From Dehalococcoidia bacterium (GTDB taxonomy: Bacteria > Chloroflexota > Dehalococcoidia > Lucifugimonadales > UBA3495), in the NCBI GenBank assembly GCA_965220245.1, contig CBDCPI010000008.1, forward strand, positions 265,264-329,263: a stretch of DNA of 64,000 bases. Reading direction: 5' to 3'. The position numbers and the translations under genes are program-made. The first letter of the stretch is position 1; each line of letters begins with the position of its first letter. The notes under the pieces were generated by a model that had not been told where the DNA came from, did not search any database, and saw nothing but the letters and a program-made list of their open reading frames with translations. Positions 6,852-64,000 of this stretch are shown here, in pieces.

Positions 6852-6855
6852 GGTG

Positions 6856-11657: not shown

Positions 11658-11661
11658 CTAA

Positions 11662-11806
11662 TATTACAACGACGCTTCCTCAATTTGGTCAGGCATTGGC
11701 CGGAAATCACGCCGCGGAAGGCAAGGCAACCAAGCTGTCAAGCATGTGGGCAGGTCGCCATGAAGAAGTCCTCAAGGTCCTATTCTTGTGAACCGTCGTT
11801 GTAATA
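11662..11806. mobile_element. MITE derived from the IS701-family element (same TIRs, no transposase)
   Basis: 145 bp. The ends tattacaacgacg / cgtcgttgtaata are identical to the TIRs of the IS at 51973-53430. Flanked by CTAA at 11658-11661 and 11807-11810. Confidence 0.7.
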
Positions 11807-12957: not shown

Positions 12958-13059
12958 GTAACAGTTCAGAGTTGATGGTCTCACTGATACGGAACCGCTC
13001 ACCCTGAGCGCAGCGCAGCGGAGTCGAAGGGCCGATTCCCCTCAAGTCTGAACAGTTAC
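12958..13059. mobile_element. 102-bp MITE with TIR GTAACAGTTCAGA and an 8-bp target-site duplication
   Basis: TIRs are gtaacagttcagagttga and tcaagtctgaacagttac. AGCTTTAG occurs on both flanks (12950-12957 and 13060-13067). A second, inverted copy lies at 39782-39883. Confidence 0.7.
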
Positions 13060-37584: not shown

Positions 37585-37640
37585 CCGGACAGGGTCACGA
37601 AATTCATGCACCTATGGACGAGGCCAAAGGGGCTATTACC

Positions 37641-38951: not shown

Positions 38952-38954
38952 CTG

Positions 38955-39781: not shown

Positions 39782-39883
39782 GTAACTGTTCAGACTTGAG
39801 GTGAATCGGCCCTTCGACTCCGCTGCGCTGCGCTCAGGGTGAGCGGTTCCGTGTCAGTGAGCCCACCAACTCTGAACGGTTAT
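39782..39883. mobile_element. Second copy (inverted) of the GTAACAGTTCAGA-TIR MITE
   Basis: gtaactgttcagacttgaggtgaatcggcccttcgactccgctgcgctgcgctcagggtgagcgg ... aactctgaacggttat is the reverse complement of the 12958-13059 family. No intact target-site duplication is visible. Confidence 0.6.
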
Positions 39884-44003: not shown

Positions 44004-44783
44004 ATGCCCTTCTTAACCCTTCCGGGAGTGGACCTGTGGTACCAGGACACCGGCGGCCCCGGTACTCCGGTGGTCTTCTTGCACGCCGCTTCGGGGACCG
44101 CCGAAAGCTGGGGGCATCAGTTGCCCGCCTTCACGCCGGCCGGCTACCGGTGCATCACCTACGACCGGCGCACCTGGGGGAGGTCCCGGCCCACCAGCCC
44201 CGACGATCAGCCGGGCTTCGTGGGAGACGACCTCCATGGACTGGTTGAGAGACTGGGCTTGGAGCGTTTCCACTTGGTGGCTACGGCGGCGGGTGGCATC
44301 GCCGGGCTGGACTACGCGCTGGACCATCCGGAGCATGTCCGCAGCCTGGTGGCGGCTAACAGCATCGGCGGCGTGCAGGACCCGGACTACCTGGAGGTCC
44401 AGAACAGGCTTCGACCGCCGGAGATACAGCAACTCCCAGTAGAGTTGCGCGAGCTTGGCCCCTCGTACCGGGGTACCGACCCGGAGGGCGCCGCCCGCTG
44501 GTTGGAGATCGAGTTGGCCAGCCGCCCTTATGGGAGGGCGCCCTCGCAGCCTTCACGCGACCCGATCACCTACGCCAGGTTGCAGACCATGCGCGTCCCG
44601 GTGCTGGTGCTGGTGCTGTCGGGAGAGGCGGACCTTCTCTCACCTCCGGCGCTGATGCGGATGCTGGCGGCCCATATCCCCGCCTCTCGTTTCGTCTCGC
44701 TCCCCGATGCGGGACACGCGGGTTTCTGGGAGAGACCGCAGATCTGGAATGGCCTAGTCTTGGAATTCATCGGCCAGCACTAG
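44004..44783 (+). CDS. Alpha/beta-fold hydrolase-like protein (nucleophile position is Ala)
   Basis: It has the HG-type N-terminus VVFLHAASG. The nucleophile elbow reads LVATAAGGIAG instead of GxSxG. Asp (GEADLL) and His (DAGHAGFWE) are retained. The stop TAG at 44781-44783 coincides with the IS630 insertion site. Confidence 0.6.
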   Translation: MPFLTLPGVDLWYQDTGGPGTPVVFLHAASGTAESWGHQLPAFTPAGYRCITYDRRTWGRSRPTSPDDQPGFVGDDLHGLVERLGLERFHLVATAAGGIAGLDYALDHPEHVRSLVAANSIGGVQDPDYLEVQNRLRPPEIQQLPVELRELGPSYRGTDPEGAARWLEIELASRPYGRAPSQPSRDPITYARLQTMRVPVLVLVLSGEADLLSPPALMRMLAAHIPASRFVSLPDAGHAGFWERPQIWNGLVLEFIGQH

Positions 44784-46016
44784 TAGTCCATCAGTGTTGT
44801 ATTGATGGGTATAGGGACTTAAGTTTGATGCGGGCGTCTGCGGTGGTGAACCGCCAGTCTACCCGCACCGTGTCCCGGTTGCGCTGACCTTGCCATGCTT
44901 CTATCTCCCGCCGAAGGGTGCTTTGGTCTGGAATGCGGCGGTTCAGGCATTGGCGTGCCAGCACCCCGATTTCGATCTCGGCCATATTCAGCCAACTCCC
45001 ATGCTTGGGCGTGTAGTGGATCTCCAACCGTTCGGCGATGCGTCGCGCTTCGGCGGGTTCAAACGCTTGGTACAGCGAGGCCGGATGATGGGTGTTCAGG
45101 TTGTCCATCACCAGCACTATCCGGTCCTTGTCAGCGTAGTCCACGTCCACCAGTTGCTTGACCACCCACGCCCAATCGGCTTTCGTGCGCTGCTCCGTCA
45201 CTTCCACCCGGCGCCATCCCTCCAACGGCGCGAACAGCATGAACAGGTTGCTCACCCCGTTGCGTTCGTATTCATAATCAAAAGCGCCTGCCGCTCCAGG
45301 GCGGGGCGGGCGCGGCAGGCGCTTTTCCTTCACCTGCTGTTTGCTGGTCTCGTCCAGGCACACCAGAACTTCGTTGTCCCTATATTGGCGATGGTAGACT
45401 TCCAGCACGTCCTCCATCGCGCACACGAACTCCGAACTGCCTTCCGGCGGGATGCACCAGCACTCTTTCAGCCAAGGCTTGAGTTCGTTTTTTTGAGCGT
45501 TTGGCGCACCGTTTCGGTGCTGATGCTCTCCACTATCTCGCATTCGATCAGCCGGTCCGCCAACAATTTCAGCGTCCAACTTACCCGGCCCTCCGGCGGT
45601 TGGGAGCAGGCCAATGCAACCAGATGGGCCTCTCCCTGACCGTCCAGCTTCTTCTGGCGGCGGTTAAGTTGCACTCTGCGTCCCAAGGCCGCTTCAACCC
45701 CCTCCTCCACGCAACGGCGGCGCACCCGTTCCACCGTCGCACCGCCAATCCGGAGGGACCGGGCAATTTCCTCGTCCTTCATGGCCCCGTCACCTTGGGC
45801 CTCATCACTCAGCAGCAAGATGCGGGCGTGGGTCTGCTTGTAGGCCGCCACCCGCCCCCGGGACACCAGCGCCAGTAGTTCCTCTTGCTCCTCCGCACTC
45901 AGTTTGACCCGGTATTTCTTCACCGACATCCCCTCCTCCCACGCCCCAATCCTCTTGGTCCTATGCCTGGTAGAATACACCCGGCCAGTCCTCAATTCAA
46001 AACTGTTAGGCTACTA
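44781..46016 (-). mobile_element. IS630-family insertion sequence, copy A (1236 bp including TA flanks)
   Basis: TIR TAGTAGTCCATCA / TAGTAGCCTAACA with TA at both ends. orfA is 45468-45995 (HTH) and orfB is 44791-45579 (DDE). They are linked by a -1 frameshift at the T7/A7 run 45488-45494. It is diverged from copies B and C. Confidence 0.85.
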
Positions 46017-46221
46017 GGCCGCGAACGGGTCCGTATTGGGGTGTACTGAAACCTTTTTGTCCAGCTTGGTTGGCCTGAGTGCACGGTAGGTGGTACTGTC
46101 TTCGAGATGTGGCTGGGGCACGATTAACCCACTGACGACTTCTGTCCAAATAACGGGGTCCACCTCAGCTATGGAGTACGCCCCGTCCTTGATATCTCAA
46201 AATGCGGTGTATTTCGCATCT

Positions 46222-47358
46222 TAGTTAACTGATGTTACGCAGCCTTAAGGAGTTGGAGTTCATCGAAAGCATGGCGAATGGCCGTGAGATAGAGCCGGGC
46301 TCTCAAGGCAAAGTGGTTCATTCCATGCTTCAACCGGAGTCCTTCCAACCGGAAGGCCGCATAGATGGACATGAAACAGTGGTTGCTCTGAGTGCGCTCC
46401 GTCCGGGTAGGCGACTTGGCCAGGGCGGCATTGGACTTGAGCGTCTTATGAAAGGTCTCCACTTTCCACCGTTTCTGGCAGATCCCGCAGATGGTTGGTC
46501 CATCACAGTCCAGATCGCTTGAGGCCAGATACAATGTCCCGGTGCTGCCATCCTTGTTTGTAAAGACCTGGCGAACGAGTTGGACCGGAAAATCCAACCC
46601 CCTCAGCCAGCACTGCACCGCTTGGTGTTCCGGCAACTCCAGCGAGTCTATGCGGGAGAAGTTGCCCTGAAGTTTCCCTTCATAGCTCAGTGCTGCCGTC
46701 CGGTTCGGCTTGAGTGCAACAACGAAATGCCGGTCCAGTTCCTGGCGTATGAAATCCAGGTTCTCCTTGGCGGCAAGCCAGCTGTCAGCCAGCACGTAGC
46801 GGTATTGCAACTGATTGCGCTGGCAGACTCGCAGCATCCGGCGCATGAGTTCGTTCTTGGTGACCTCGCTCTTGCGCTTGAGCCTGCCGGTCTTCTCATC
46901 GTGGTACACCAGCGGCTTTCGGACCAGTTCGTAGGCCACGGGAACCGCTGCATCCCCGGCGTAGTACACGCAGTTGAGCAGGTTGATCCCCTTGACGGAA
47001 CGGTTCTTGCTATGGTCGAAATGCCAGCTAATCAGTTCGTTCTCGTCCGTATAGGGCTTTTCCTCGATGGTGTCATCGAAGATCAGCGCCCCGTCCGGGT
47101 CTTCGATGGCGCGCACCATTGGCTTGACCTGTTGCCACAGGGTTTTGGAGTCATAGTCTGCCCTAGATAGAAAGCGCGTTACCTGGTCATGGCTGACCGC
47201 CCCTTCCACTGTGGATGACAACCCGTGTGGATGACAACCCGGTGGCGGTGGTGGCGCCAAAGGAACTCAACAGGTAATCGGTGTACAGTTCTAACATCTG
47301 TTTATCCATGGCTCTAATCTACCATTTCCCTCAACCTGTGCGTAACATGAGTTACTTA
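46222..47358 (-). mobile_element. IS4/IS701-like superfamily IS with an inactivated transposase
   Basis: TIR-like ends are ttagttaactgatgttacgc (from 46221) and gcgtaacatgagttacttat (to about 47358). The transposase runs from 47309 to 46235 (SHDQVTRFL ... IFDDTIEEKPYTDENELISWHFDH). It is broken by a 16-bp tandem duplication at 47210-47241. The ends are approximate. Confidence 0.65.
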
Positions 47359-48034
47359 TTGTATACTCAATATCTTTGTCTACTTCAGCCCAAATGTCCA
47401 AGGCAAGTTGCACGTCGCTACCGACCAAGCTTGGGAGCACATGTTCTCGCCATGTCCCCAACTCAGGGCTGTTCCCATCTCGTTCGTTGGCTATTCTACA
47501 TGCCAGCCGCATTTCCAAGGCTGACGGAAAGCCCCACCACCATTGGTATGTTATCCCCTCTTCCGTTTGAGGGAGCCTGAACCCGAAGTCTCTCAATTTC
47601 GCAATGACGCACAAAGACGGAATCTTGACCTGCCCCGAGTTACGTAGCTTTAACCGTTCATTTGCCCAGCCTTCAATGAAATCCGTCCACCTTGATCCGT
47701 CCGTTCCAATACGATGGACGTAGAGCAAATCCGGTAGTCCATCACAACGCAGCAGGTTTTCGATGTTTCGCCTAGTCCAATCCGAAGCCCAAAAAGCATT
47801 CATTGCTTCCGAGCTGGCGGTCAATGGGTCTGATTGCCCAGGGTCAGTCAGTTCGCAAAACGAAAAGCCTGCCATCAGGCCGAGTCGGTTGCGAACGAGG
47901 CGCCCCACCATCTCCCGGCTCAGGTTATCGGGCAATAGGACAATTACCAAATTCTGGCCGACACCCCTTGCGATGGCGTCCAAGAACGTTTGAGCAGATG
48001 GAAGCGAGTAAGCTATTTCCTCTAAGTCCATCAT
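47359..48034 (-). CDS. Orphan protein X3, third gene of the disrupted operon; 3' end cut by the IS
   Basis: The first 225 codons are native (MMDLEEIAYSLPSAQTFLDAIARGVGQNLVIVLLPDNL...). The last 22 codons of the track ORF are IS sequence. All three frames of the far flank (46221 downward) close within about 20 codons. I recognised no family. Confidence 0.45.
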
Positions 48035-48059
48035 TCAGTGCCTATCTACGCATTTGAAG

Positions 48060-49142
48060 GGCTTTGTTGCATGAATATTGGCAGCACATGAAATGTCCCG
48101 ACACCCTTTGAATCGAGCTATGCTACTCGATAGCTATCCGGCATTCCCAAGTGGGTCATCCGATTCAAAGCGGCACACTTTACCTTGGCTTCCACCTTCT
48201 GCTGCGGTAACTTCCTGGCCTGAAGATAGGAACCAAAGATGGTCTTGAACCGAAACATGGCAGTCTCGGCCAGGGAACGCCGATGATAGCCCGACTCTTG
48301 TTTCCACCGCTTACGTCCTACCTTCCGAATCCTTCTCAGGTTCTCGTCCCGCACCAGGGGCGGGGCGGCACAGTTCCCATGCTGCCAGATACGGGCATCC
48401 TTTCGAGGTGGAATTGCTACCCGCCTGACACCTCTGACAGCGCAGCCCTCATATACCTTCCTTTTGTCGTAGGCCCCATCGCCACCCACCTGCTCCACTG
48501 ACTCGGTGCTCTGGTCCAGAAGTTCGGGCACCGCTCCCGCATCGTCCAGGCTGGCCTCGCTCAGTACCACGGCCTGGATCTCCTGGGTTTCACTGTCCAC
48601 GCTTAGATGGAGCTTCCTCCAGGTGCGCCGTTTGGTATAGCCATGCTGACGCACCTTCCATTCTCCCTCCCCAAAGACTTTCAACCCGGTGCTGTCCAGT
48701 ACCAGGTGCAAGGGCCCAGCAGCTTTCCTGAGCAAGGAAACCCCCAGGCGCTTGGCGCGCTTGCAGAGGGTGGTATAGTCCGGCACCGGCAAATCCCACT
48801 CCAGCAAGTGAAACACGGACCGGAGAAACCCTTCGGCAGCCCTCAGGGTCAAGTGGAAGACGCTGCGCACCATCAACAGACACTGGATTGCTCCATCGGA
48901 ATACTGAAACTGCCCACCGCGCTTTCGGGGGCCGTCGGGCTTCCAGGCCCCAATATCCTCTTCGCTGGTCCATAGGGTTATTGAACCCCGCTGGACCAGG
49001 CTTTCGTTGTAGTCATGCCAGTTACGTATCCGATACTGGGATTTCCTGGTGGTGGTGCGTTTCTTGGGACGAGCTTTGGAGGCTTGCGGTGTTCGCTTCA
49101 TGCCTCCAGCTTAACACTACCTCCCATTCATTCAACAAAGCC
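48060..49142 (-). mobile_element. IS5-family, IS903-group insertion sequence
   Basis: The terminal repeats GGCTTTGTTGCATGAAT / GGCTTTGTTGAATGAAT match the classic IS903 inverted repeat GGCTTTGTTGAATAAAT. The single 327-aa transposase is at 48118-49101. No 9-bp target-site duplication is detectable. Confidence 0.75.
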
Positions 49143-49535
49143 ATAAAGGACTATTCCGGCGTTTTGCCCACTCTGGGCCAGGCGTCGGATTGCAGTATTG
49201 TGCCTGAGCCGATCTGGACGAGCGTCTTCCCATAGGCAAAATACATGGAAAATTCCTTTGGCTAGGGAGCCAAACAACGGAGCCCCTTTGACTCCTTCGA
49301 CTGCGCTCGGGTCCGACTCGAATGTAAAGTGAACCCACCCGTTGTTATTTCCTTCGTCATGGCGGGTAAACTGGTGCTCGTTTTCATATGGCAACCCAAG
49401 AAAGCGCAGGATGGTGCCTACACGATTCTTCGACGTGGGTCCGGTTCGGTCACGAGGTCTCTCTTTCCTTAGTTCGATCCAAGACTCGACTGCTTGCAGG
49501 GTCTCTTTAGATTGGGGGTTCTCCGTAACCACCAT
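49143..49535 (-). pseudogene. Orphan small protein X2, interrupted near its 3' end by the IS903-group element
   Basis: 131 native codons (MVVTENPQSKETLQAVESWIELRKERPRD ... GIVLY) followed by IS-encoded GFVE*. Across the IS, the frame closes within 5-8 codons just before the X3 ATG at 48034. Confidence 0.45.
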
Positions 49536-50287
49536 GACGGCTACCGCACTCCTGCCTTAAGTTCTTGGGCCAGATTGTTCAAACCATTGCTGTCCTGAGC
49601 GTGAATCTTCGGGTTGCCTATCTTTTCATAGAATTGCAAGAATTCCTCCAAGGGGAGGAGTTCGGCACCTTCCCGGGTAGTTCGGCCAACTGAAACTTCT
49701 TCCCCTGAATGGTGATTCCTGAGCCGGCTAACGCATTCTTCCACGACCCTGATGTCCAAGGAATCTGTGCTACTTGCCTTCTCAAAGGTGGAACTGACCT
49801 CCTTCAAGAAATCCCCATTCAAGTCGAGATCTCCTTCTGACTCTTGCATCAGAGATTGCCACTCTTCCAAGAGTTCTTGCCGCCGCTGCATTCGCTCCAC
49901 TTGTAGTTCGTTCTTGATTGCCTCAAGAGCATCATATACAGGCCTGAAGTTGAGGACTGCCTCTACGTCCAAGTCTCCCAAAGTGTTCTGGAGTTTATTC
50001 CACTGGGATCCTTCAAATTCGATTACTCCATCTTTCTCAGCCTGGTCAACAGCAGCCTGAGTCAGTTCAATAGCTGCTCTGAGTGTATTCTTCTCGGTAG
50101 TAAGCTCCGCCATGTACCTGTTCTTGTTGTGGTCCAATGACTCCTTGGGCATTCCCGACATCAAGAGGCCGGAAAATCGGAAATCCCGGTGATCCATACG
50201 GCTCTGTAGTGCGGCTTCCAAAGAAACGCTTCCTTGGCGCAAGCCTGCTATGGCCCTAGCCAAATCCACCAAAGAGTCCTCTGACGC

Positions 50288-51523
50288 TAGTAGTCCAACA
50301 TCTTTGAATTGAGTACTGAGCAAGTGTATTCTACCAAGCATAGGGCGAAGAGGATTGGGGCGTGGGAGGAGGGGATGGCGATGAAGAGATACCGGGTCAA
50401 GCTGAGCGCGGAGGAGCGGCAGGAACTGAAGGCATTGGTGTCCCGTGGCCGGGTGGCGGCTTACCAGCAGACCCACGGGCGTATCCTGCTGCTGAGTGAT
50501 GAGTCCCATGCGGACGGGGGCATGAAGGATGAAGACATTGCCCGGGTTCTCCAGATTGGCCGTGCGACGGTGGAACGGGTGCGCCGCCGTTGCGTGGAAG
50601 AGGGTCTGGAGCGGGCCTTGGGGCGCAAGGAGCAACTGAACCGGAGGCAGAAGCGGTTGGACGGTCAAGGAGAAGCCCACCTGATTGCCTTGGCCTGCGC
50701 TGAACCGCCAGAGGGCCGGGCCAGTTGGACGCTGAAACTGTTGGCCGACCGACTGGTCGAATGCGAGATAGTGGAGAGCATCAGCCCTGAAACAGTGCGC
50801 CAGACGCTCAAAAAAACGAACTCAAGCCTTGGCTGAAAGAGTGCTGGTGCATCCCGCCGCAAGGCAGCGCCGAGTTCGTCTGTGCGATGGAAGACGTGCT
50901 GGAAGTCTATCAGCGCCAGTATGCGGACAACGAAGTTCTGGTCTGTCTGGACGAGACCAGCAAGCAACAGGTGAAAGAGACGCGCCGGCCGCGGCCGGCC
51001 CAGCCTGGGGCGCTGGGCTCCTACGATTACGAATACGAGCGCAACGGGGTGAGCAACCTGTTCATGTTGTTCGCTCCGCTGGAAGGGTGGCGCCGGGTGG
51101 AAGTGACGGACCGGCGCACCAAAGCCGATTGGGCCCGGGTGGTCAAGCAACTGGTGGACGAGGACTACCCGCACAAGGACCGTATTGTGCTGGTGATGGA
51201 CAACTTGAACACCCACCACCCGTCCTCGCTGTACGAGGAATTTGAACCTGCCGAAGCACGGCGCATCGCCGAACGGTTGGAGGTCCACTACACTCCCAAG
51301 CATGGCAGTTGGCTGGATATGGCCGAGATTGAAATCGGGGTGCTGGCCCGCCAATGCCTGGACCGCCGTATTCCCGATCAAAGCGCTCTGCGGCGGGAGG
51401 TGGGAGCGTGGCAGCAACGGCGCAACCGGGACGGCATACGAGTGGACTGGCGCTTTACCACCGAGGATGCGCGCATCAAACTGAAGTCCCTTTACCCATC
51501 AATCCAACACTGATGGACCACTA
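50288..51523 (+). mobile_element. IS630-family insertion sequence, copy B
   Basis: TA-flanked, with TIR TAGTAGTCCAACA / TGATGGACCACTA. orfA is 50309-50836 and orfB runs to 51513. They are linked by a -1 frameshift at A7 (50810-50816), giving LKKNELKPWLKECWCIPP. Differs from copy C by only a few SNPs. Confidence 0.9.
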
Positions 51524-51972
51524 GTAGGCCCGCATCATCAATCTCAATAAACGGCACCCAAAGTAGCCATCTCGAAATGGCCGTTTCTAGTTGCTCAAAT
51601 TCACCAGTTGAGTTCGCCGTCGACCTTCCAAGCGAATTGATTAACTCGAGGCCACTAACGATTGGTAGCGGTTCCTCAGGTGATTCGTGCTGGAAGTCGA
51701 CGTTCAGGTAGTCAGCCAACTGCCGCAGCGAGCGCGTCGCACATTTTGCAGCAGCGGCAAGGCCTTGTGGGGTCCCTTCGGACCCCAATTCGCGCAATGC
51801 TTCAAACACTGTAGGGCACTCAGCTTGGATCTGGGACCGCAGGATTGAAACCTGTTTTGTAGCCGTCTATCTAACCTTCCTGGTCGCGTCGAAGCTTCAC
51901 GGGATACAAGGTTGCACCAAGTCGTTGCCCGGTCCTTAGCCTCTTCAATTCTCTTTATAAGCCAATCCCTAG

Positions 51973-53430
51973 TATTACAACGACGGTTCAAGGAGGGACG
52001 TGTGGGGAGGCACGAAGGGCGGCTCGACGCTTGGCATGGGAGTGTCTGGCCCGCTCGTTGCATTCTTGCGTCTCCTCCAGCCACCGCAGCAGTTCAGCCG
52101 GCCCGAACCGTTCCCGGGGCAGCATCTCCCGCACCACCCGGTAGACCTGCGGTCTCGTGATCCGGGGCATCTTTTCCCCCCCAAGCCTGTTGCAGGCTCA
52201 GGAGAAACGCTCCGCCCAGCAGGCACAGGGCGACGTGATGATGCCATCCCGCCCAGGTGCGGGTCTCGTACTCGTCCAGCCCCACGTTGCTCTTTTCCGT
52301 CTCGAACTCCGTTTCTATGCGCCACCGGGAGCCACCCACGTATGCCAGGGTCTCCAGGGGAGTATCCTCCGGATCGTTGGACAGGTAGTAGCGGGGCTCG
52401 CTGCCGTCCAGGTTCCGGCGGTAAATGGCCCAGTGGATTTCGCCAGGCTTCCGCCTGCTGGTTGGACGCACCCTCTGAGCGCTGAACAGGTAGCTGCGGG
52501 GACCCTGGCTTCCCTCGGCCACCGTAATCTCACGCCAGGCCTCCTCCGGCAATTCATCGCTGCGCTGCTCCATGGTCCGGCGCTGACCGTCTCGCAACTT
52601 GGGTTTGCGGGGACGCCCGAATCCCTGATGCTCCGGCCTGGTCCAGGCTGGCTCCAGCGGCCAGACCGTGGTGCCGCCGGGAACGTCCAGCACGTAGCGC
52701 ATCCCCAGCGCCGCCAGTCCCTCACGGAAGGACGGCGACATCCCGAAGGCGTCGTCCCCCGCAACCCATCCGGCCCTCAGATGTCCCCGCTCCAAGGCCC
52801 GCTCCACCATCTTCAGCGCCAATTGGGTCTTCGACTGGTAGCCCTGCCTCTCCTCCGGAACCCCCGCCGCCTCACACCGGTCTTGGTCCGAGGTCCAGCT
52901 CTCCGGCAGATAAAGCCGTTTGTCCACCAGGGCCCGTCCCAGCGGGCTGACGTAGGCGAGGAACATTCCGGCCTGGCAGCTGGCCACCTTGCCCAGCCTC
53001 CCGCAATACTGACGGGCCACTCCCACGGACTTCCTGCCCTGCTTCGGGAAGTCGCTGCCGTCCAGCACCCACACCGCATCCGGATGTCCCAGCCGGGGTC
53101 CCAAGTACTCTTGAAGGCGTCCTATGACTGTGTCGTCATCCCAGGGGGATTCAGCGAGAAACCGCTGCATCACCCTGGCTGACGCCGGAACCGTCTCCGA
53201 CAGATTCTCGGCGTTGCGCCGCTCCCCGGACTGTACCAGGAGAGCCTGGAGGTAATGGCGGCTGTGGTCCCGCGCTTCCCTGCGGCCAAACAGCGGAGCG
53301 AAGTAAGCGTGAAAATCCTGAAAGGTCCCGTACACCTGCTCGAAAACCGCAGCATCCACTTCCCTGCCTCACTTGCCCAAGCCTTCCCCAACTACCCCGT
53401 CATCCTATCATCCCAACCGTCGTTGTAATA
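51973..53430 (-). mobile_element. IS701-family insertion sequence
   Basis: TIR tattacaacgacggtt / aaccgtcgttgtaata. CTAG direct repeats at 51969-51972 and 53431-53434 fit YTAR. The 421-aa transposase is at 52094-53359 (LDGSDFPKQGRKSVGVARQYCGRLGKVASCQAG). Confidence 0.8.
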
Positions 53431-54917
53431 CTAGCATTGCCAACGATATCTCCTTGTCTGGAAGGCCGACCTCCTATTAAGTTCTCTGCCTGGTTGATAA
53501 CTTCGGCGTACCGATCCCGATTGAGACCATCGATGTAGCTCTGCACTGTGTTGACCTGGTCCCTCATGTCTTGCGAAAAAGGCGTCAACATTTGGTAAAG
53601 AACACCTTCTCCGCAAAGGTATTGCCATGCTCTTACAGCCCTGGAAAAATTGGTCTGATATTTAGGGGCTTCCTCCAACCACTTTCGAGCCTCTGCGCTT
53701 GCCTCCACAATCAAGCCTTGGAGCCGCTGCAGACCCTCATCGCCAGTGATGTGCTCCGGGCGTAGGGAATTCCCTGCGGCGGCGAACACTCTAATCGGAG
53801 ATACGATTGATTCGATAGCTGGCAGGCAACGAGGGGAGGAAAGCCACGCGAGAAGATTCGTTTCGGGAGCTATTAGTGTTGGCAAGAGGCCTGCAGACAG
53901 CCGAAGCAAAGTTTGTGCGTCGTCGTCGTCAATGGCTTCGAATTCGCCTACTATGTCAAATAAGTCCCCCACGTACGTATCAGAATCTGAGGAGAGCCAG
54001 CGCCCTCCTTGCAAAGCTTTCAACACTTGAGGTGGGACGGGCGGATTCGACCCCTGAGCGATCATTGACCTCGCGACCCAGTAGGCTCCTGCCAAGTCGT
54101 CCTGCGCTACGAGATCCCAAAGGATCGACGGGACATCATGGACAGGGTGTCGCTTGGCGAAAACCGTGTAAGTTCGCGTCGTTTCGTTGTCTTCCGCCGT
54201 AACCATAACGTGCAAGGCTAAGTTGTCCTTCCCTAGAGCATCCCCGGCAATTACAAAGCTACCATCATCGGACAATGAGCTATCGACTGTCGTACCGTCA
54301 GACAGAACAGCGGCCAAAACAACAGTAGCCTCTGCATGGGCAGTTTCAGGGACAATGGTCAAACTGTCCAACTCTTCAGGCAAGTCTACGTTAATTTGGT
54401 TATCTCCCGGAGGAAATTCCAAGGGCGTTTCTTGCAGGTGCAGCCTCTCAAGGCTGGCATTGCTGCTTCGGGTGGGGGCCACCAAACTGTTCGGTGCCCG
54501 AGTTACGGCCAACTTGTAGGTTTCGCTGTATACGGGATCTTCAACGACAATGTTGATGGAGATGACAGTCTGGCCGACAACGAGATTCGAGACAACGAAC
54601 GTTCCGTGGTCGGATTCCAATTCTTCGATAATTTCGCCATTTGGTGTTAGAACGGCTACCTCGAAGGTGACGTCCACATGATCTGACTCTGGTGTAATGG
54701 CTAGCGATTCTACCGCATTGTTCAAATTTATCGTGTAGTTCGTCTGCGTTGGGCTAAAGTCCAAAGTCCCTACGGATAGCCCAATTGTGGACAGGCGCTC
54801 AGTGTTGTTGGGTTCCTGTTCCGCGATACGAACCTGGTGATCCGGTGTCGACTCAACTGGGTCTTGAAATACAGCATCCGCTGTCGTCAGCGCCTTATCC
54901 AATTCTGATTTGAGATC

Positions 54918-56153
54918 TAGTAGTCCAACATCTTTGAATTGAGTACTGAGCAAGTGTATTCTACCAAGCATAGGGCGAAGAGGATTGGGGCGTGGGAGGA
55001 GGGGATGGCGATGAAGAGATACCGGGTCAAGCTGAGCGCGGAGGAGCGGCAGGAACTGAAGGCATTGGTGTCCCGTGGCCGGGTGGCGGCTTACCAGCAG
55101 ACCCACGGGCGTATCCTGCTGCTGAGTGATGAGTCCCATGCGGACGGGGGCATGAAGGATGAAGACATTGCCCGGGTTCTCCAGATTGGCCGTGCGACGG
55201 TGGAACGGGTGCGCCGCCGTTGCGTGGAAGAGGGTCTGGAGCGGGCCTTGGGGCGCAAGGAGCAACTGAACCGGAGGCAGAAGCGGTTGGACGGTCAAGG
55301 AGAAGCCCACCTGATTGCCTTGGCCTGCGCTGAACCGCCAGAGGGCCGGGCCAGTTGGACGCTGAAACTGTTGGCCGACCGACTGGTCGAATGCGAGATA
55401 GTGGAGAGCATCAGCCCTGAAACAGTGCGCCAGACGCTCAAAAAAACGAACTCAAGCCTTGGCTGAAAGAGTGCTGGTGCATCCCGCCGCAAGGCAGCGC
55501 CGAGTTCGTCTGTGCGATGGAAGACGTGCTGGAAGTCTATCAGCGCCAGTATGCGGACAACGAAGTTCTGGTCTGCCTGGACGAGACCAGCAAACAGCAG
55601 GTGAAAGAGACGCGCCGGCCGCGTCCGACCCAGCCTGGGGCGCTGGGCTCCTACGATTACGAATACGAGCGCAACGGGGTGAGCAACCTGTTCATGTTGT
55701 TCGCTCCGCTGGAAGGGTGGCGCCGGGTGGAAGTGACGGACCGGCGCACCAAAGCCGATTGGGCCCGGGTGGTCAAGCAACTGGTGGACGAGGACTACCC
55801 GCACAAGGACCGTATTGTGCTGGTGATGGACAACTTGAACACCCACCACCCGTCCTCGCTGTACGAGGAATTTGAACCTGCCGAAGCACGGCGCATCGCC
55901 GAACGGTTGGAGGTCCACTACACTCCCAAGCATGGCAGTTGGCTGGATATGGCCGAGATTGAAATCGGGGTGCTGGCCCGCCAATGCCTGGACCGCCGTA
56001 TTCCCGATCAAAGCGCTCTGCGGCGGGAGGTGGGAGCGTGGCAGCAACGGCGCAACCGGGACGGCATACGAGTGGACTGGCGCTTTACCACCGAGGATGC
56101 GCGCATCAAACTGAAGTCCCTTTACCCATCAATCCAACACTGATGGACCACTA
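54918..56153 (+). mobile_element. IS630-family insertion sequence, copy C
   Basis: Same ends and TA flanks as copy B. orfA is 54939-55466 and orfB runs to 56143. Confidence 0.9.
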
Positions 56154-57388
56154 AACTAAAGCCAAGGTGGGATGTACATATGGCCGGTGGTGGGGATCGG
56201 TACGAGGGTTACGCGGGAGCCCCTCTGCTCTTGATTGCAGGATGGTCCGGCAGCGGCGCTTGACCTCCTCTTTCCGCCCGGCCAGCCCATCGAAGAAGTT
56301 CCCGACCCTCTCCTGAACCAGTTCCTTGGTCCCCAAGCACAGATTTCCGGTGGCCTCCTCTCTCGCCCAGCCCCAGATGGCCTCGTCAGCGTTGAAGTCC
56401 GGGCTGTATCCCGGCAGGTTCACCAGCCGCAGGTTCACTCCGGGCTTGCCCAGCCATTCCCGCACCGCGTATCCCCGGTGGGCCGGCGCGTTGTCCCAGA
56501 TCACGTTCAGCCGACCGCTGTGCCTCTCCCTCAACTGCTCCAGGAAGGCTGCCGACGTTCCTGAGTTGCTGTTCCCCTCCAGTTCCATCCACTCCACCTG
56601 GCCGGTCTCCAGGCACACCGCCGAATAGTAGCTGGCCTTCTCTCCGTAGCGCGGGCTAGTCGAGTCCACCAAGGCTGGCTCTCCCCGGAGCACCCATTTG
56701 CCCCGCAGTTCGGCGTCCGCACGGAAATGGGCCTCGTCGGCGAAGAATATCTTTTCCCCGGATTCTTGAGATTGGAATGCCAAGGCGGCGTACTCCTCCA
56801 CGAAGGCCTCCCGTTTCTCCGCATCAGCCTTGAGCAGACGCTTTTTGGGGCGCTTGAACGCGAATCCCAGACGGTGCAGATAGTTCAGGCAAGAGCTGCG
56901 GCTCAGGCTGATACTGAAGCGCTCCGAGGCAAACAGCCGCACCACCTTCCAGTTCCAGTTGGCCATGACGATGCCCGACTTGGCGGGCAACTCCTGCACC
57001 GCGGCACTCAACGCCGCCTGCTGCGCCTCTTCGAGGGCGGGGGGGAACCACCGGACTGCTCGAAGATCAGGGCCGCCGGACCTCCCTCGCTGAAGGCGGT
57101 GGCCCATCTGCCGATGGTGTGAGCATCCCGGCTCAGTGCATGGGCGGTGGCCGAGGCGGTCATGTTCCGGCACAGGAGCCACAGAGCGTGCCACCGTTCT
57201 CTTTCCCGAGGCGTCGGCGCCAGGTACATCCTGCTGCGCACACCAGCCAAGTCCAACTGCCACCGTTCCAAGTCCGGTCTTATCCCCCTCATACCCATCA
57301 CCATCCCCACTCAGTCTGTTCCCCGTCCTGACGCTATACCTCCCTGATTCTAGCCAACGTATATGCAGGTTTCACCTTGGCTTTGGTT
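56154..57388 (-). mobile_element. IS630-family insertion sequence, copy D (distinct lineage)
   Basis: TIR AACTAAAGCCAAGG / AACCAAAGCCAAGG with TA on both sides (56152-56153 and 57389-57390). orfA is 57008-57310 and orfB is 56151-57263. They are linked by a -1 frameshift at the C7/G7 run 57039-57045. Confidence 0.8.
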
Positions 57389-58501
57389 TAGTATGCTCCG
57401 AGTATCCGCGTCATGCTCCCCTCTCAGACGTTGTGTTTCGCTGAAAGAGGATCCCATCTTGGGAGCAGGATCATATCCCTTTAAGAATCCGCCAAACTGT
57501 GTCAATGTCTCGCGAATGTGGGCCACTTCTGCCGAGGACGAGCTAACGGGGACCTCCCAGTTACTCAAATCAAGCTCCAAGTACTCCAACAAACTGGAGA
57601 ATTGAAGCAAATCAGCAATGATTGCATTGAGTGCTTGGACAGCCGCGACCGACTCGCGGTCGTCATTTTTCCTATCGACGATATCGTTAACCGAAGATAC
57701 GAAATCAGGGACATCGGCGAACCACTCCGGAGCATCAGAAGGCAGAAGTTCCAAGAAGCGGAGTGCTTGCGCAAGAGCGTCTTTGTTCATCGAGTCCGCC
57801 TCAACTTTTGATTCGGCTTTACTGCCAGTAGGGATCTTGTCTGCCGCAAAGCATAGCATCAGGGCCACGTCATCTTGACTTAAGTCCCCGTGAACAGCCA
57901 GGACGCCTTCTTGTTCGGACTTCCAGTCGTCTTCCGACCACGTTCCTCTGAACCTATAGGCAACAAAATCAAGGTATTCGACGTCCATGTCCCTGCTGTA
58001 AAGGTAACGTTTAACGATAGCGTACAGGGTCTCCTGAGACGCAAACCAAGCGTGTAAGACCGCGTTGGCCAGTGGCTCTGAACGGACCAATTGGTCAATG
58101 ATACGGTGTTTAAGAAGCGGAGCCGGTGCGATTGCCGGCTGCTTGGGAAACTGTGGCACTTTTACGGCAGAGTTGATCGCGGCGTCGAGCTCACGATGCA
58201 CTTCGTTAGGCAATTCAGCCTTATGATTGAGAACGTGAACTACAATAGACTCCTCGAATTCCTGAGGCATCAGATCAAGGAGTGACATGTGCCGTAAGTC
58301 TGTTGGCATCTTCGGGCTGCGCTCAGCCATCAGGCATAGCTCGCTTTCCTGGGGGCCGCTTCATTGACTTCCCCGACTTCCCCAGAGGTTCAACTCTCGA
58401 AGGATTATCGCAAGGCGGATTTTGTTTGGCAATGAGACGGACCGTCTTCAGGTCACTCCTGCGCAACGGTTAGCAGTTTTCCCACAGCGGTTTCCACGGC
58501 T

Positions 58502-59035
58502 TTACCCTCCAGCGATGTGCGCAGCCACGTCCGCAACGGCGGCGTGCAATCCCTGATCAGGGTCGAACCTTGGGATGGGCAGCCTCCACAGGCGCTTGTG
58601 CAAGTCCCGTGCCCCAAACAGGCCCCTCGTCATAAGCGGTGTCACAGCATCTCTTAGCGCGGCGCTGTTAATGATTGCCAGCAGATAGTTGGCTTCATCT
58701 ATGTCCCGGCAAGGAATCCAAAACAGCACATTTTCTACCAGGGCGGTGTTGTCATGCAAAATGGCCGCACTGGGCTCACCTGATTTTGAGTACACCACTC
58801 TCACTTGCCCGTCGTCAAAGTTTCTTTGCCATTCCAACTGCGATGACAGCTTATGTAGATAGTCCAGTTGCCCCAGAAGGTTTAGTCTGTTGACCGGCGC
58901 CTTGTTGTCCTCCCACAATCCGCTAACCGTCTGCCAACGCTCTCGCATCCTTCGTTCCAGACTCCCCAACCTGATGCCGCCGAGGCCGTTGTCATCAGCA
59001 AGTATAGCAGGATCCCCGCGCTTCAGGGGGAGCAA
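58502..59035 (-). pseudogene. C-terminal fragment of a DNA-methyltransferase/type IIG R-M-like protein
   Basis: The N-terminal side is cut by the MITE at 59038-59217. The tail FWIPCRDIDEANYLLAIINSAALRDAVTPLM ... LWRLPIPRFDPDQGLHAAV resembles C-terminal regions of large SAM-dependent DNA methylases. The resemblance is from memory only. A further coding-looking tail lies in another frame after 58502. Confidence 0.3.
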
Positions 59036-59037
59036 AG

Positions 59038-59217
59038 CCTTAAGTGGTCAGGGCAACCGCATTCTAAATTACACATTCGTCACTCCCGCGAAAGCAGGAA
59101 TCCAGAGACCGCAATGTAGCGCAATTGGGAACCGCACCGGCGATTTCAGGCAATAGATTCCTGCTTTCGCGGGAATGACGGGAGCGATCTAATTAGAATG
59201 CGGTTGCCCTGCTTAAG
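59038..59217. mobile_element. 180-bp MITE with TIR CTTAAG..CAGGGCAACCGCATTCTAA
   Basis: The ends cagggcaaccgcattctaa (59049-59067) and ttagaatgcggttgccctg (59193-59211) are perfect inverted repeats. Two ATTCCCGC-type hairpins lie inside (59078-59103 and 59156-59181). Confidence 0.6.
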
Positions 59218-60164
59218 AGCCTATCCTAATAATCCGGCAGCCCTGAAAGCAATAAGGGCACAGGCGAAATGAAGAAAGGCGATGTAGTTTCTGGGAAACT
59301 TGTCCCAGCGCACCAGAATGCGCCGGAAGCGGTTCATCCAACTGTGGGTGCGTTCCACCACCCAGCGCCGGGCTTTGAAGCCAGCCTCCTTTTTGATGGC
59401 CTGGGCTTTGATGGCCTGGGCCTCCTCGCCCCGGCTGCGGATGTGGGCGGTGAAGCCGAATTCCTCCAGGGTTCGGCGCACCTCCTCATAGTCATAGCCC
59501 TTGTCCGGGCACAGACCTTGGGGACGCTCCGGAGTGGGCGCCGGGCGCGGCACCGGGAAACTGTCCAGCGTAGCCCGCACCAGTTTCATGTCGTGGCGGT
59601 TGGCTCCGTCCACCGCCAGCCCCACCGGGATGCCCTCAGCTTCGGTCAACAGACTGCGTTTGACCCCGCTCTTGCCCCGGTCCGTGGGGGTTGGGGCCGG
59701 TTTTTTTCCCGCCCAGGGGGGATTTGGTTATCGCCCCGTCCATGCTCAGCCAACTCCAGTCCAGACCCTTCAATTCATCGTACTCTTGCAGGCCCGCCCG
59801 CCACAGCTCCAGGAACACCCCGGCGGCGGCCCACTCCTGGAAGCGCAGATGGGCGGTGGATCCGGAGCAAATGCCCGTGGCATCCAGGGCTTTCCATTGG
59901 CAGCCGGTGCGCAGCACGTAGAATATGCCGTTGGCGCAGGTCCGGTCCGGGACCCGGGGACGGCCTCCGCCCCGGGGATGAGTGTTCACCCGCTGGGGAA
60001 GCAACGGGGCCAGCACTTCCCACAGTTCATCGGATACCTGAAAGGAGCCGGTGGTGGGGTTGACCGGCGCCGCTGGGCCGGCGCGCTTCGGTCGTGGCGG
60101 CTTGGGTTCCTTCGCTTTCGTCATACCACTAGTTTAGCTCGAATTCTGTTTTTAGGATAGGCAC
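59218..60164 (-). mobile_element. IS5-family (IS427/IS1031-like) insertion sequence, copy 2, inverted relative to copy 1
   Basis: Near-identical to 10711-11657; the coding differences are R to Q in orfA and L to P in orfB. orfA is 59636-60124 and orfB is 59221-59649. The flanks, in IS orientation, are CTAA and CTTA, so they do not match. Confidence 0.85.
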
Positions 60165-60390
60165 TTAGAGGTAACGGTATTGACCCCTTCAGGGAAGGAA
60201 CTCGCTAGATTCTGTGAACACGAACCGAGTTTAGAATATTTATCATGTTTCGCCAGATATCTAGAAACACAGAATTGTAGCCTGAAACTGGCTCCGATAA
60301 TTAGCGTGACCCCGGACGGGAGAATGCAGTTCTATGAAAGGGAGTTGCGTACCTTGTGATAAGGATCCTGAGAGTTGAGGTATCCTCACC

Positions 60391-63300
60391 ATGGCCACGA
60401 CTAATGCTAAGCGTCTAATCGAAGTCGCCTTCCCCCTGAAGCAAGTCTCCTTGGATTCGGTGCATGAGAAGAACGTGCGGCATGGGCACATCTCCACCCT
60501 GCACATCTGGCCGGCGCGGCGTCCCTTGGCGGCGTCGCGGGCCGCGCTGATTGCCACGCTGCTGCCGGACCCGGGCGATGCTGAGGAGCGCAAGGACATC
60601 CTGGAGCGCATGGCGGGACGGGTCACCGAAAAAGTGGAGCGCAAGCGCGTCAACGGCCGGATGGTCGAGAAGGTGAAGGAGGAGACGGCCGGGGGCATCC
60701 TACATTGGGGGCGTGAGAATGGGCCGGACCTGGAGTGGTTTCGCAACCAAATCCGCGAAGCCTACGGCGGGCGGGCGCCCAAGGTGCTGGACCCCTTTGC
60801 CGGCGGCGGCGCCATCCCCCTAGAGGCCATACGCCTGGGCTGCGAAGTAACCGCCATGGACATCAACCCGGTAGCTTGGTTCATCCTCAAATGCACCCTC
60901 GAATACCCGCAGAAGCTGGCGGGCCAGACTCGCCCCTTGCCGGAGTTTGCCCTGGCCGACCGGGAGTTCATGGAGGCGTTCCTGAAGGCGAAGGGCTTCA
61001 AGGGGGCCAGGCTGCGGACGTTCCTCGAACGCCTCGGACACGGTAAGGGTGAGGGGCGTCAACTCGGGGAGTTGTCCCAATACGATTCGATAGCCGAAGC
61101 AGACCTGGCCTGGCACGTGCGGGCCTGGGGTTGGTGGGTGCTGGCCCGCGCCCGTCGGGAGTTGGCTTCCTGCTATCCCACCTACGCCGAGTTTCAACCC
61201 TTGACTCCTACCGGAGACGAAGAACGACGCCCCTTGTGGCTCCTTGACCTGGACGAAAACGGCGTTGCCCAACTCGACCCGCTCAACGCGGAGTTCGACG
61301 ACTCCTACCTCAAGGGCCCTCGCAACCCGCGTTGGGTTGCCAAGCCCACGGTGGCCTACCTCTGGGCGCGCACCGTGTCCTGCAAGCAATGCCGGGCCAC
61401 GCTGCCCCTGCTCAAGACCCGTTCCGTTGGCTGTGCAAGAAGGACAACAAGCGCGTCCTTCTGGCGATGGAGCCGAACTCGGACCGGACCGGCGTTACCT
61501 TCGCCGTACAGCCCGATGTGCCCCAACACGGCGGCAACACGGCGCAGCGGCGGGAGCACGATAAGCGCATTGGGGCAGGAACCATGTCCCGGACCGGCGC
61601 AACCTGCCCCTGCTGCGGCGCAATTATGACCATGAGCGACATTCGCTATGAAGGGCAAGCCGGGCGTCTGAGTGCGGTTATGACTGCCGTAGTGGTGGAT
61701 GGCGTTAAGGGCAAGGAAGACCGCTTGCCGATGAACCACGAAATCGAGGTGGCTGAGGTAAGCGAGGAGCAGCTTCAAACCCTTTATGCAGAAATCCCTT
61801 TCGGGCTGCCGGAGGAACCTTTGCCCAGCAAAGAGGCTCTCGGATTTCGTGTCCCACTATATGGCTTCGACACTTGGCGCAAGCTGTTCACAAACCGGCA
61901 GCTATTGGCATTAGCCAACTTCCTAAAGAGTTCGGAAGCCACCGAGCTAATGATCCAGCCAACTAAGGATCAGGAGATATGGTCAGAGAGCATAGATGCT
62001 TGTTTGGCATCGATGTTAGACCGCCTTGCGAATCAAAACAGCGCTATTTGCCGTTGGCATAACAACGGAGAAAAGGTCGAAGGGACGTTTTCCAGGTTTG
62101 CTCTGCCGATGGTTTGGGACTTTGTGGAAACGAATCCGTTGGGATTGGCCACGGGTGGTTATCTGAGTGCGTTGGAATGGGTTTCACGAGTAGTCTCACA
62201 CGCTTGTTCAGCGGCAGACGTTTCTCCCAAGTCTGAAGCCCTTTGTCAGAGCGCTTTAGAATCATTAGGTCAGAAGGTTGACATTATCCTAACTGATCCA
62301 CCCTATTACGACGCCATTCCTTACTCAGACTGTATGGACTTTTTCCATGTTTGGCTTCGACGAGCGACACACGGGCTTTCTCCTGAAATGGACGCCGCGT
62401 TTCAGGAACCCCTTGGCCCCAAATGGAATCATGACACCCGCGACGGCGAGTTGATTGACGATGCCAGCCGGTTCGACGGCAACAGAACACTATCAAAGAA
62501 GAACTACGAAGACGGGATGGCCCGTGCGTTCCAAGCCTGCCACGCTACGTTGCAACCCGACGGGCGGCTTGTGGTAGTGTTCGCCAACAAGCAGCCCGAT
62601 GCGTGGGAGACGTTGGCGGCTGCCTTGATACGCGCCGGATTCGTCGTTGATGGTTCTTGGCCCATCCAAACAGAAATGGGTACTAGGACTCGTGCAATGA
62701 CCTCAGCAGCCCTGGCTTCCTCTGTCTGGCTGGTCTGCCAGAAGCGGCCTCCGGGCTCTCCTGGATGGGATAACATCGTCTTGGGCGAGATGCGGGAGAA
62801 CGTCACTCAGAAGCTGCGTGACTTCTGGGACGCCGGGATTCGCGGCCCCGACTTCGTTTGGGCCGCCACCGGCCCCGCGCTGGAAGCCTTCAGCAAGCAC
62901 CCGGTGGTCAAGAAGGCAAACGCTCCCGACGATGTTATGACTGTTTCGGAGTTCCTGCGCGAGGTGCGGCGGATGGTGGTCGATTTCGTCGTGGGCCGGG
63001 TGCTGACCAAGGGCGGTGAGGAGACGGTGACCGGCCTTGACGACGTGACAACCTACTACCTGCTGCACCGCAACGACTTCGGCCTTGAGGATGCGCCAGT
63101 GGGCGGCTGCATCCTCTACGCACTGTCCTGCAACCTCTCCGACTCGGCGCTGGTGAACCAGCACGACCTTCTGGCACAGTCCAGGAACGGCTCGACAGCC
63201 AACGACCTCGAAGACGACGCCTCCGAGGATGATGAGGGCGAGGACGACAGCGAAGGCGGAAGCGGCGCAAAGGTCAAGCTCAAGCCTTGGCACCGGCGCC

Positions 63301-63599
63301 GGGGACGCAGCCTCGGCTTGGAAGCGCCGGGAGGGCGGACCGCGCCCCTTATCGACCAGGTACACAAGTTGATGCACCTCTGGCGGGCAGGCGACCAGGT
63401 CCGAGTTAACGAGTATCTGGACAGCCGGGGCCTCCAACGCAACGCCCTGTTCCACCAGCTATTGCAGGCGCTCATCGAACTGGCCCCCGCCGGCTCCGAC
63501 GAGCGGACCATCCTGGAAGCCCTGAGCAACCACGCCGCCGCCCACGGCGACGTGCGCGCGCCACGCTACCGGCAACCCCGGCTGGGAGAGTCGTCATGA
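60391..63599 (+). pseudogene. DUF1156-family DNA methyltransferase (defence-island associated), frameshifted
   Basis: The N-terminus KRLIEVAFPLKQVSLDSVHEKNVRHGHISTLHIWPARRP is DUF1156. It has SAM motif I VLDPFAGGGAIPLEA and motif IV ILTDPPYYD. The reading passes from frame 1 to frame 3 at 61420-61422 (LLKTR | FRWLCKKDNKRV), consistent with loss of 1 nt. Confidence 0.7.
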
Positions 63600-64000
63600 T
63601 AACCTCGGTCTGCATGGTCAACTTCAAGAACTTCGCCGACGAAACGCTGAAAGTCGGCCCCTTCGCTGAAAGTCGGCCCCTTCACGGTAATCGTGGGGGC
63701 CAACGCCAGCGGCAAAAGCAACATCCGCGACGCCTTCCGCTTCCTCCACGGCATCGGGCGCGGCTACACCCTCGCGGAGATTCTGGGGGGTAAGTATGGC
63801 CCGGGCGGGCAGAGGGAGTGGGCGGGGATTCGGGGGGCGCCTAATGAGGTGGTTCGCTTCGAGAAGCGTTACCCTTATGAGTCTTCTACGTTCACCATTC
63901 ACTTGGAACTAGATCTGGGAGGAGAAAAGGCGGCCTCTCTGATTAAGGTGGAACTCAATCCGAAATCAGGGTTCGCGGTGTTGGAAGAAGATCTGAAGAC
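63596..64000 (+). pseudogene. AAA (AAA_15/21-like) ATPase, 3'-partial, disrupted by a 19-bp tandem duplication
   Basis: ATGA start/stop overlap with the DUF1156 gene. MITSVCMVNFKNFADETLKVGPF is followed by the duplication, then by TVIVGANASGKSNIRDAFRFLHGIG (Walker A) in the shifted frame, which stays open to the window end. Confidence 0.65.

Follow-up and report, generated by a model that had tools for sequence, protein, structure and literature searches.

The accumulation and nesting of insertion sequences (IS) in pseudogenised accessory or defence islands is well known, as part of the IS expansion seen in IS-rich or host-restricted bacteria. In this study, we analysed a window of 64,000 nucleotides (nt) from a Dehalococcoidia bacterium (assembly GCA_965220245.1, contig CBDCPI010000008.1, positions 265,264 to 329,263 of the forward strand; all positions below are those of the window), in which eight full-length IS copies lie within 15.4 kb in and around the remnants of a three-gene operon, here called g1-g2-g3. 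We propose, with a probability of about 70%, that this pile-up reflects the neutral build-up of active TA- and CTAG-targeting IS in an accessory defence island that was already inactivated. The region resembles known IS-riddled islands in its multiple IS families in non-essential acquired DNA, its redundant hits, its flanking deletions and its decay by small indels, and differs from them in being unusually dense (62% of the 15.4 kb is IS) and recent. Only general reviews came up when the literature was searched for IS in defence islands. The locus is a case of ordinary genome decay, but an unusually clean and fully reconstructable one: because the operon insertions are absent from a relative of 96-99% identity, the pre-insertion gene can be rebuilt base for base.

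The resident operon itself can be compared with conflict systems that combine a STAND/AAA+ nucleoside triphosphatase (NTPase), such as the Avs-type STAND NTPases, with a HEPN effector. It is like them in the Walker A and B motifs and the fold of g2, in the AAA+-like fold and the RNxxAH motif of g3, and in the occurrence of the g1-g2-g3 cassette in variable, defence- and IS-rich neighbourhoods. It differs from them in that the AAA+-like domain of g3 is without a P-loop and in the presence of a third partner, the cadherin-like g1 of 1205 amino acids (aa); moreover, the domain order of g3, AAA+-like and then HEPN, is reversed relative to Ava_2192. The HEPN motif has been defined as Rx4-6H with a polar residue after the R, and Swt1-like HEPN domains fused to an AAA+ ATPase are known in DUF499 proteins associated with restriction-modification (PMC3710099). 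A further comparison is offered by the Hma system, since a DNA methylase next to the pile-up, once repaired, matches HmaB; however, the window contains neither an HmaA helicase nor a DUF499 HmaC, the methylase gene is itself a pseudogene, and the gene that follows it encodes an ABC-type (ATP-binding cassette) ATPase cut by the window end.

Results

Insertion sequence content of the region

The boundaries of the IS were taken from the reading of their junctions, repeats from a self-comparison of the window, and family assignments from Pfam and NCBIfam, with cut-offs of 250 bits for NF049921 and 140 bits for NF033579. The eight copies that a sequence-only reading of this DNA had placed between 44781 and 60164 are all present at that span, with six distinct elements among the eight full-length copies (four IS630, two IS701, two IS5). 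Where that reading had counted four families, there are three at the ISfinder level (IS630, IS701 and IS5), the IS903-like and IS427-like elements both belonging to IS5; as names of subgroups, these two serve here as provisional labels. The IS total 9546 bp, or 9709 bp when an element resembling a miniature inverted-repeat transposable element (MITE) is included, which agrees with the earlier figure of about 9.7 of 15.4 kb, and the non-IS segments, said to be gene fragments almost without exception, are each a fragment (of g1, g2, g3 or a type IIG enzyme) or a short flank.

Half of the copies belong to IS630 and represent three distinct elements (A; B and C, which are the same; and D) inside 12.6 kb. 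IS630-A (44783-46014, minus strand, 1232 bp; DDE_3, E=3e-26, and HTH_32) is bracketed by TA at 44781-82 and at 46015-16. IS630-B (50290-51521, plus strand, 1232 bp, TA on either side) is 99.6% identical to IS630-C (54920-56151, plus strand, 1232 bp), and the latter abuts IS630-D (56154-57391, minus strand, 1238 bp; inverted repeat AACTAAAGCCAAGGTG; DDE_3, E=1.5e-22, and HTH_33) via a single shared TA (56152-53). In the self-comparison, B and C appear as 1237-bp repeats at 50287-51523 and 54917-56153 with 99.6% identity, together with an inverted third copy at 44781-46017 that is 85% identical to both, so that IS630-A, at a DNA identity of 85%, is a different element from B and C. Each of the four has TA on both sides, and all of their ends show inverted repeats. 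In their DDE_3 domain, terminal inverted repeats and TA duplication, all four follow the TA-target transposition of IS630/Tc1-mariner elements, from which the locus departs in that C and D adjoin at a single TA and that CATACTAG has lost 3 nt there. B and C are 3.4-4.6 kb apart, and the near-identity of two such close copies points to very recent, possibly local, transposition.

Two observations concern the IS630 sequences themselves. The transposase of IS630-A is split over two frames that meet at an A7 run, and an A7/T7 run stands at the transposase frame junction of A (45486-45492), B (50810-50816) and C (55440-55446), where it has been kept between A and B/C despite 15% divergence; one added A would join the frames through the LKPW motif, which hints at programmed slippage during transcription or at frameshifting. 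All five differences between B and C fall within 53 bp (50946-50998 versus 55576-55628), a clustering more suggestive of gene conversion by a third copy than of mutations scattered along the element.

The element at ~46230-47351 (minus strand; terminal inverted repeat CTSATGTTACGC; DDE_5 (PF13546), E=5.3e-16), previously labelled IS4/IS701-like, scores as IS701 family (NF049921, 325 bits) and is called IS701-like here; its transposase is frameshifted by a 16-bp tandem duplication at 47210-47241. IS701 (51973-53430, minus strand, 1458 bp; DDE_5, E=9e-60) has perfect 16-nt terminal inverted repeats and is flanked by CTAG on both sides. The IS5-family, IS903-like element (48060-49142, minus strand; inverted repeat GGCTTTGTTG; NF033579, 322 bits; DDE_Tnp_1_5 (PF13737), E=7.7e-35) showed no target-site duplication when its junctions were read. 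The last copy, IS427-like copy 2 of the IS5 family (~59217-60164, minus strand; DUF4096, E=2.7e-24; DDE_Tnp_1 (PF01609), E=2.1e-15; TTA flanks), was inserted at CTTAG, 1 nt off the end of the MITE-like palindromic element (59049-59211, no strand assigned, 163 bp), which carries perfect 19-nt terminal inverted repeats and two hairpins resembling repetitive extragenic palindromes (REP), has no clear target duplication and occurs once within the window. IS427-like copy 1 lies at ~10711-11658 and is 99.7% identical to copy 2, in line with the 953-bp repeat of 99.7% identity that self-comparison found between 59216-60168 and 10707-11659; both copies have TAA/TTA flanks, the exact duplication length being ambiguous. 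As judged from such near-identical copies and from the conserved A7 run, several IS630, IS701 and IS5 elements look active at present in this Dehalococcoidia lineage.

The remaining 44 kb, credited earlier with one IS, hold a single full-length IS together with a 145-bp IS701-derived MITE and two copies of a MITE of 101 bp. The 145-bp MITE (11662-11806) has the terminal repeats of IS701 (TATTACAACGACG...) and CTAA/CTAA flanks, and IS427-like copy 1 (10707-11661) sits in its left CTAA duplication; with copy 1 inside this duplication and copy 2 at 1 nt from the MITE-like element, both IS427-like copies abut a MITE end. The two copies of the ~101-bp MITE-like element (12959-13059 and 39782-39882; terminal repeats GTAACnGTTCAGA) are 95% identical, mutually inverted and intergenic. 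REP-like hairpins (ATTCCCGC-N4-GCGGGAATGAC and relatives) are spread across intergenic DNA at 5200-9530 and 59080-59185, two of them within the MITE-like element at 59049-59211. Near IS427-like copy 1 there are a HicA-like toxin open reading frame (10198-10446, assigned by sequence only) and a gene for a Macro-domain protein (8823-9470; PF01661, E=1.5e-46), which may form another small accessory patch.

Reconstruction of the resident operon

When IS630-B, IS701, IS630-C and IS630-D are excised together with one half of every target duplication, a single frame is restored from 58330 to 49541 that encodes the 1205 aa of g1 and is collinear with intact homologues of 1205-1210 aa. Its four segments are all on the minus strand: codons 1-313 at 57392-58330 (tblastn against g1 residues 1-315 of the homologous contig L001), about codons 313-808 at 53431-54919 (two cadherin-like beta-sandwich domains, PF12733, E=5.7e-15; 97.3% nt identity to the homologous contig L055), about codons 808-956 at 51524-51972, and the 3′ end, about codons 957-1205, at 49541-50289 (tblastn against L001 g1 residues 949-1204). 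Upstream of g1, ~105 bp of conserved DNA reach to 58436 (blastn to L001, L002 and L003). The sole break in the reconstructed frame is a 1-bp deletion in the third segment at ~51856/51857, where the DNA alignment with L001, L002 and L003 has CTACAAGAACAGG and the window has CTACAA-AACAGG. With this 1-bp deletion and its four IS, g1 has suffered five independent lesions, so that at least four of them are redundant and fell in a gene that was already dead.

The reconstructed g1 matches 20 database proteins, 16 of which are full length (1197-1210 aa), cover 99-100% of the query and reach up to 80% identity; the cadherin-like beta sandwich is the only Pfam domain in the g1 homologues. Downstream, g2 is reduced to codons 1-131 of 602 (49143-49535, minus strand; 84% aa identity to L001 g2 1-131) and g3 to codons 1-228 of 421 (47352-48034, minus strand; 84.6% aa identity to L001 g3 1-228 and 98.4% nt identity to L055), and the stretch at 46017-46229 (minus strand) is host DNA that in an intact relative lies just 3′ of the g3 stop codon, 46055-46229 being 97% identical to L055:13241-13067. 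The order g1 (~1205 aa), g2 (602 aa), g3 (~421 aa) is conserved in a cassette of ~6.9 kb, of which L001, L003 and L004 have intact copies and L005 a partly intact one. Around it, the homologous contigs are variable and rich in IS and recombinases.

An IS-free allele and its empty sites

The sequence-only reading had proposed a search of relatives for the ancestral, IS-free state, and such an allele was found in L055 (contig ENA ERZ25074053, a 10x contig), which shares 96.3-98.7% DNA identity with each of the host remnants from 46055 to 57993 and is without all six IS elements that sit inside the operon. At this chromosomal position, synteny of 35 related Dehalococcoidia genomes yielded no ancestral state. 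The intra-operon IS are missing from L055, so that all of them postdate the split from it, at a divergence of 1-4%. The empty site of IS701 is one CTAG in L055, L002 and L003, and that of IS630-B is a TA within CTAG in L055. For IS630-C and D, the ancestral site in relatives, L055 included, reads CATACTAG, and 3 nt are gone from the double junction in the window (54918-54919/56152-56153/57392-57393), where the reconstructed g1 is one codon shorter than its relatives, TAC or CTA being missing. Two clean insertions in one TA were therefore rejected as an account of C and D; slippage between adjacent TA duplications may have produced the double junction.

The two remaining IS in the operon replace host DNA, as can be read directly from the alignment. 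The IS5-family element stands in place of 1387 bp of g2, about codons 132-594 (L055:10394-11780), and the IS701-like element in place of 578 bp of g3, about codons 229-421 (L055:12489-13066). The CTTA repeats around the latter had been a candidate target duplication, which was dropped when L055 revealed the 578-bp deletion, the flanks of this element lying 578 bp apart in L055. Walker A and Walker B are absent from the g2 remnant because of the IS5-associated deletion of 1387 bp, and the HEPN half of g3 is missing because of the 578-bp deletion associated with the IS701-like element. Within L055 itself, the part of g2 that corresponds to codons 1-131 (L055:10001-10393) has 11 non-synonymous and 0 synonymous changes on the L055 branch, which could be a local contig error, a compensated frameshift or real divergence.

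Clustering of the insertions

The IS are clustered beyond chance. With random placement on the non-IS DNA of the window, the probability that at least eight of nine IS fall in this region is 1.6e-7, and restoring the deleted DNA raises it to 8.5e-6. The 718 kb of loci taken from the 35 related Dehalococcoidia genomes contain one homologous transposase per 42 kb or so, compared with one per 1.9 kb here, and smaller IS clusters are present in relatives, for instance in L010 and L033.

Predicted products of the operon

In public data, g2 has at least 306 and g3 at least 251 clusters at 90% identity, all of them unnamed. PADLOC v2 at E<=0.01 gave no match for the full-length g1-g3 of L001 or for the window fragments, PHROGs gave none for g1-g3, NCBIfam returned nothing for the window fragments of g1-g3, and PDB sequences, searched with profiles of all three proteins, gave nothing meaningful; above the Pfam threshold, the window fragments and full-length relatives of g1-g3 returned only cadherin-like domains.

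The g2 family has a Walker A motif, FGGRQLGKT, and a Walker B motif, MFDESD, both invariant or nearly so; in the family alignment they occupy residues ~233-241 and ~330-335. The AlphaFold model of g2 (pLDDT 83) is matched by Foldseek to 2qen, an archaeal Walker ATPase (E=8.7e-8), and to 2fna, ORC/Cdc6, Avs3 and NB-ARC, and the Pfam matches to AAA_22 and nSTAND1 are below threshold. On this modelling, g2 is predicted to be a STAND/ORC-like P-loop ATPase, either of a STAND clade or of the ORC-like AAA+ kind.

For g3 (pLDDT 91), the N-terminal half resembles the AAA+ modules of RuvB, ORC and RFC (E ~1e-4, modest TM-scores) and is without a P-loop, and residues 299-419 are all-helical with pLDDT >90; Foldseek with the whole protein is dominated by the AAA+-like half. 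In the C-terminal motif R395-N396-x2-A399-H400, the residues R395, N396, A399 and H400 are invariant in 29 sequences, and, its R being followed by a polar residue, the motif conforms to Rx4-6H. Among Pfam families, HEPN_Swt1 (PF18731) comes out most often on top, for 8 of 29 g3 members, below threshold and with a best E of 0.0017. It is probable, as far as the model and motif go, that g3 joins a degenerate AAA+-like domain to a Swt1-like HEPN RNase.

Boundaries of the island and neighbouring genes

To the left, the island begins at an intact alpha/beta-hydrolase gene (44004-44783, plus strand; Abhydrolase_1, E=1.2e-23), whose TAG stop codon holds the TA targeted by IS630-A. The first base of IS630-A, a G, recreates this stop codon, so the insertion was harmless to the hydrolase. 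Orthologues of the hydrolase with 69-86% identity occur in ~35 Dehalococcoidia metagenome-assembled genomes (MAGs), and no such island was found within 10 kb downstream of the gene in those MAGs.

Beyond g1, the C-terminus of a type IIG restriction-modification enzyme (58502-59035, minus strand, 178 aa) matches REase_MTase_IIG of PADLOC with E=6.1e-5 over positions 977-1045 in a profile of 1100. The gene has lost about 85% of its length, the remnant is abutted by the MITE-like element and IS427-like copy 2, and it has 68% nt identity to a gene beside Eco57I fragments in L054. It is followed by a DUF1156/HmaB-like DNA methylase pseudogene (60391-63599, plus strand), frameshifted by a 5-bp tandem duplication (CCGTT x2, 61419-61428), of which the repaired product (1067 aa) matches HmaB with 381 bits and E=2.9e-114, and by the 5′ end of a PDC-M07A-like ABC-type ATPase gene (63596-64000, plus strand), which runs past the window end and carries a 19-bp tandem duplication at 63645-63682; its repaired N-terminus matches PDC-M07A of PADLOC with E=4.9e-19. 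With host remnants at a guanine-plus-cytosine content of 52% against 61% in the rest of the window, and with no such island beside the hydrolase orthologues, the DNA that starts at 44.8 kb and runs past 64 kb thus reads as an accessory, decaying and horizontally acquired defence island.

Three frameshifts of the island (47210-47241, 61419-61428 and 63645-63682) stem from perfect tandem duplications, of 16, 5 and 19 bp. Because these are short tandem duplications and not homopolymer indels, real mutations are favoured over sequencing errors, and they perhaps reflect a characteristic mutational process. The remaining 44 kb hold ordinary metabolic genes, AddAB (29304-35962) and a Septu pair, with long open frames in the housekeeping genes and in the Septu pair. 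The latter (37614-39512), which is apparently intact, consists of a PtuA-like AAA_21/AAA_15 ATPase (PADLOC E=1.3e-38) and a PtuB-like HNH protein (E=3.5e-19), and it lies beside AddAB, 5 kb upstream of the IS pile-up.

Discussion

The island held the ~6.9-kb g1-g2-g3 cassette beside a type IIG enzyme, an HmaB-like methylase and an ABC ATPase. If the pile-up arose by neutral build-up, the cassette, once it was no longer maintained, by a first knock-out or by lost selection, would have offered the many IS of this genome a place to land without effect, and those with a preference for TA, CTAG or CTAA would then have inserted repeatedly. Four are simple insertions into g1, one went into the TA of the neighbour's stop codon and one beside the MITE, and the other two are accompanied by neighbouring deletions through which g2 lost its ATPase core and g3 its HEPN half. 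New targets also arose from the insertions themselves, as in the case of IS630-C and D back to back and of the IS427-like copies in or beside MITE flanks. The sequence-only reading had offered two explanations, a tolerated sink for insertions after loss of function and repeated selection for inactivating a costly or toxic locus. The former fits best, given the redundant hits in g1, the lost cores of g2 and g3 and the dead, unrelated neighbours; the order of events and the part played by selection are inferred. The latter does not explain the redundant hits, and keeps its place as a possible trigger in view of the probable HEPN domain of g3 and the disruption of the operon in other contigs.

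Selection would have acted if the cassette were costly or autotoxic, for example through autoimmunity of a HEPN RNase triggered by the ATPase, so that IS which silence it were favoured. The invariant RNxxAH motif of g3, together with the best Pfam match of 8 of its 29 members to HEPN_Swt1, speaks for such a cost, as does the fact that what the two deletions take out is precisely the ATPase core in g2 and the HEPN half in g3. The same operon has also been independently broken elsewhere: in L055 the 5′ end of g1 is truncated (1093 aa left) and replaced by unrelated DNA (L055:6300-6720), in L054 g1 has 209 aa and g3 260 aa (L054:7561-10783), and in L056 a DDE_5 IS interrupts a g1-type gene (L056:3766-8001). 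This repeated breakage, which exceeds a purely passive expectation and fits a cost, weighs against neutral build-up. The dN/dS on the window branch of g1, branch-polarised against L055 with L001 and L003 as outgroups, is ~0.5 from 21 changes (8 synonymous, 13 non-synonymous) and is uninformative, as it does not separate neutral from selected, and the baseline of the IS enrichment is that of the window and of related loci. On the other hand, five lesions are present in g1 and hits after the first would bring no further benefit, the adjacent unrelated genes decay as well, and the full-length g1 homologues are the majority, 16 of 20 or 21, so that the system is commonly maintained. We therefore regard selection for inactivation as an unlikely explanation of the pile-up as a whole; for the first hit, however, a cost of the system remains a serious alternative.

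Two further explanations set the function of the locus aside. An AT-richer island might offer more of the preferred TA, CTAG and CTAA targets and attract IS regardless of function. Indeed, host remnants have 35 TA sites per kb versus 30 elsewhere, 1.9 CTAG sites per kb versus 1.1 elsewhere, and a guanine-plus-cytosine content of 52% compared with 61% in the rest of the window, and all mapped targets are TA inside CTAG or CTA-type sites. However, a target enrichment of 1.2- to 1.7-fold cannot yield an insertion enrichment of ~20-fold, and the other 44 kb have 48 CTAG sites yet a single full-length IS; such a hotspot is very unlikely to account for the cluster, and base composition as its sole cause was dropped on effect size. 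Mis-assembly, by which dispersed IS copies were collapsed or chimerically joined, was the outcome that the sequence-only reading had named as fatal to the pile-up, and repeats of 1.2 kb with 99.6% identity that lie close together in a metagenome-derived contig do invite the suspicion. It is scarcely credible here, because each IS is bracketed by adjoining pieces of one gene in the right order, orientation and frame with matching, intact duplications, g1 can be rebuilt in frame, all flanks are collinear with the 96-99% identical contig L055, and both deletion junctions stay inside the operon. For practical purposes, an artefact is excluded.

Whatever drove the insertions, the by-product of this work, a conserved, uncatalogued and repeatedly broken ATPase/HEPN cassette, is more interesting than the pile-up. 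From its domains and its context we infer that g1-g2-g3 may be an NTPase-controlled, HEPN-armed conflict system. More speculatively, it might be an undescribed three-gene immune or abortive-infection system, in which g2 would be a sensor or switch, g3 a pseudo-AAA+ adaptor fused to the HEPN RNase effector, and g1 a cadherin-like partner, and whose autoimmune cost would have led to recurrent IS knock-out in four independent contigs (the window, L055, L054 and L056), so that the pile-up would mark a toxic system and not inert DNA; we put this forward tentatively and consider it doubtful.

The locus has value as a record of decay, in which target sites, a nested insertion, IS-associated deletions and tandem-duplication frameshifts can be reconstructed step by step, with a near-identical IS-free allele at hand for comparison. 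If the cassette proved to be a costly defence system, loci of this kind could be used as a signature to find costly immune systems.

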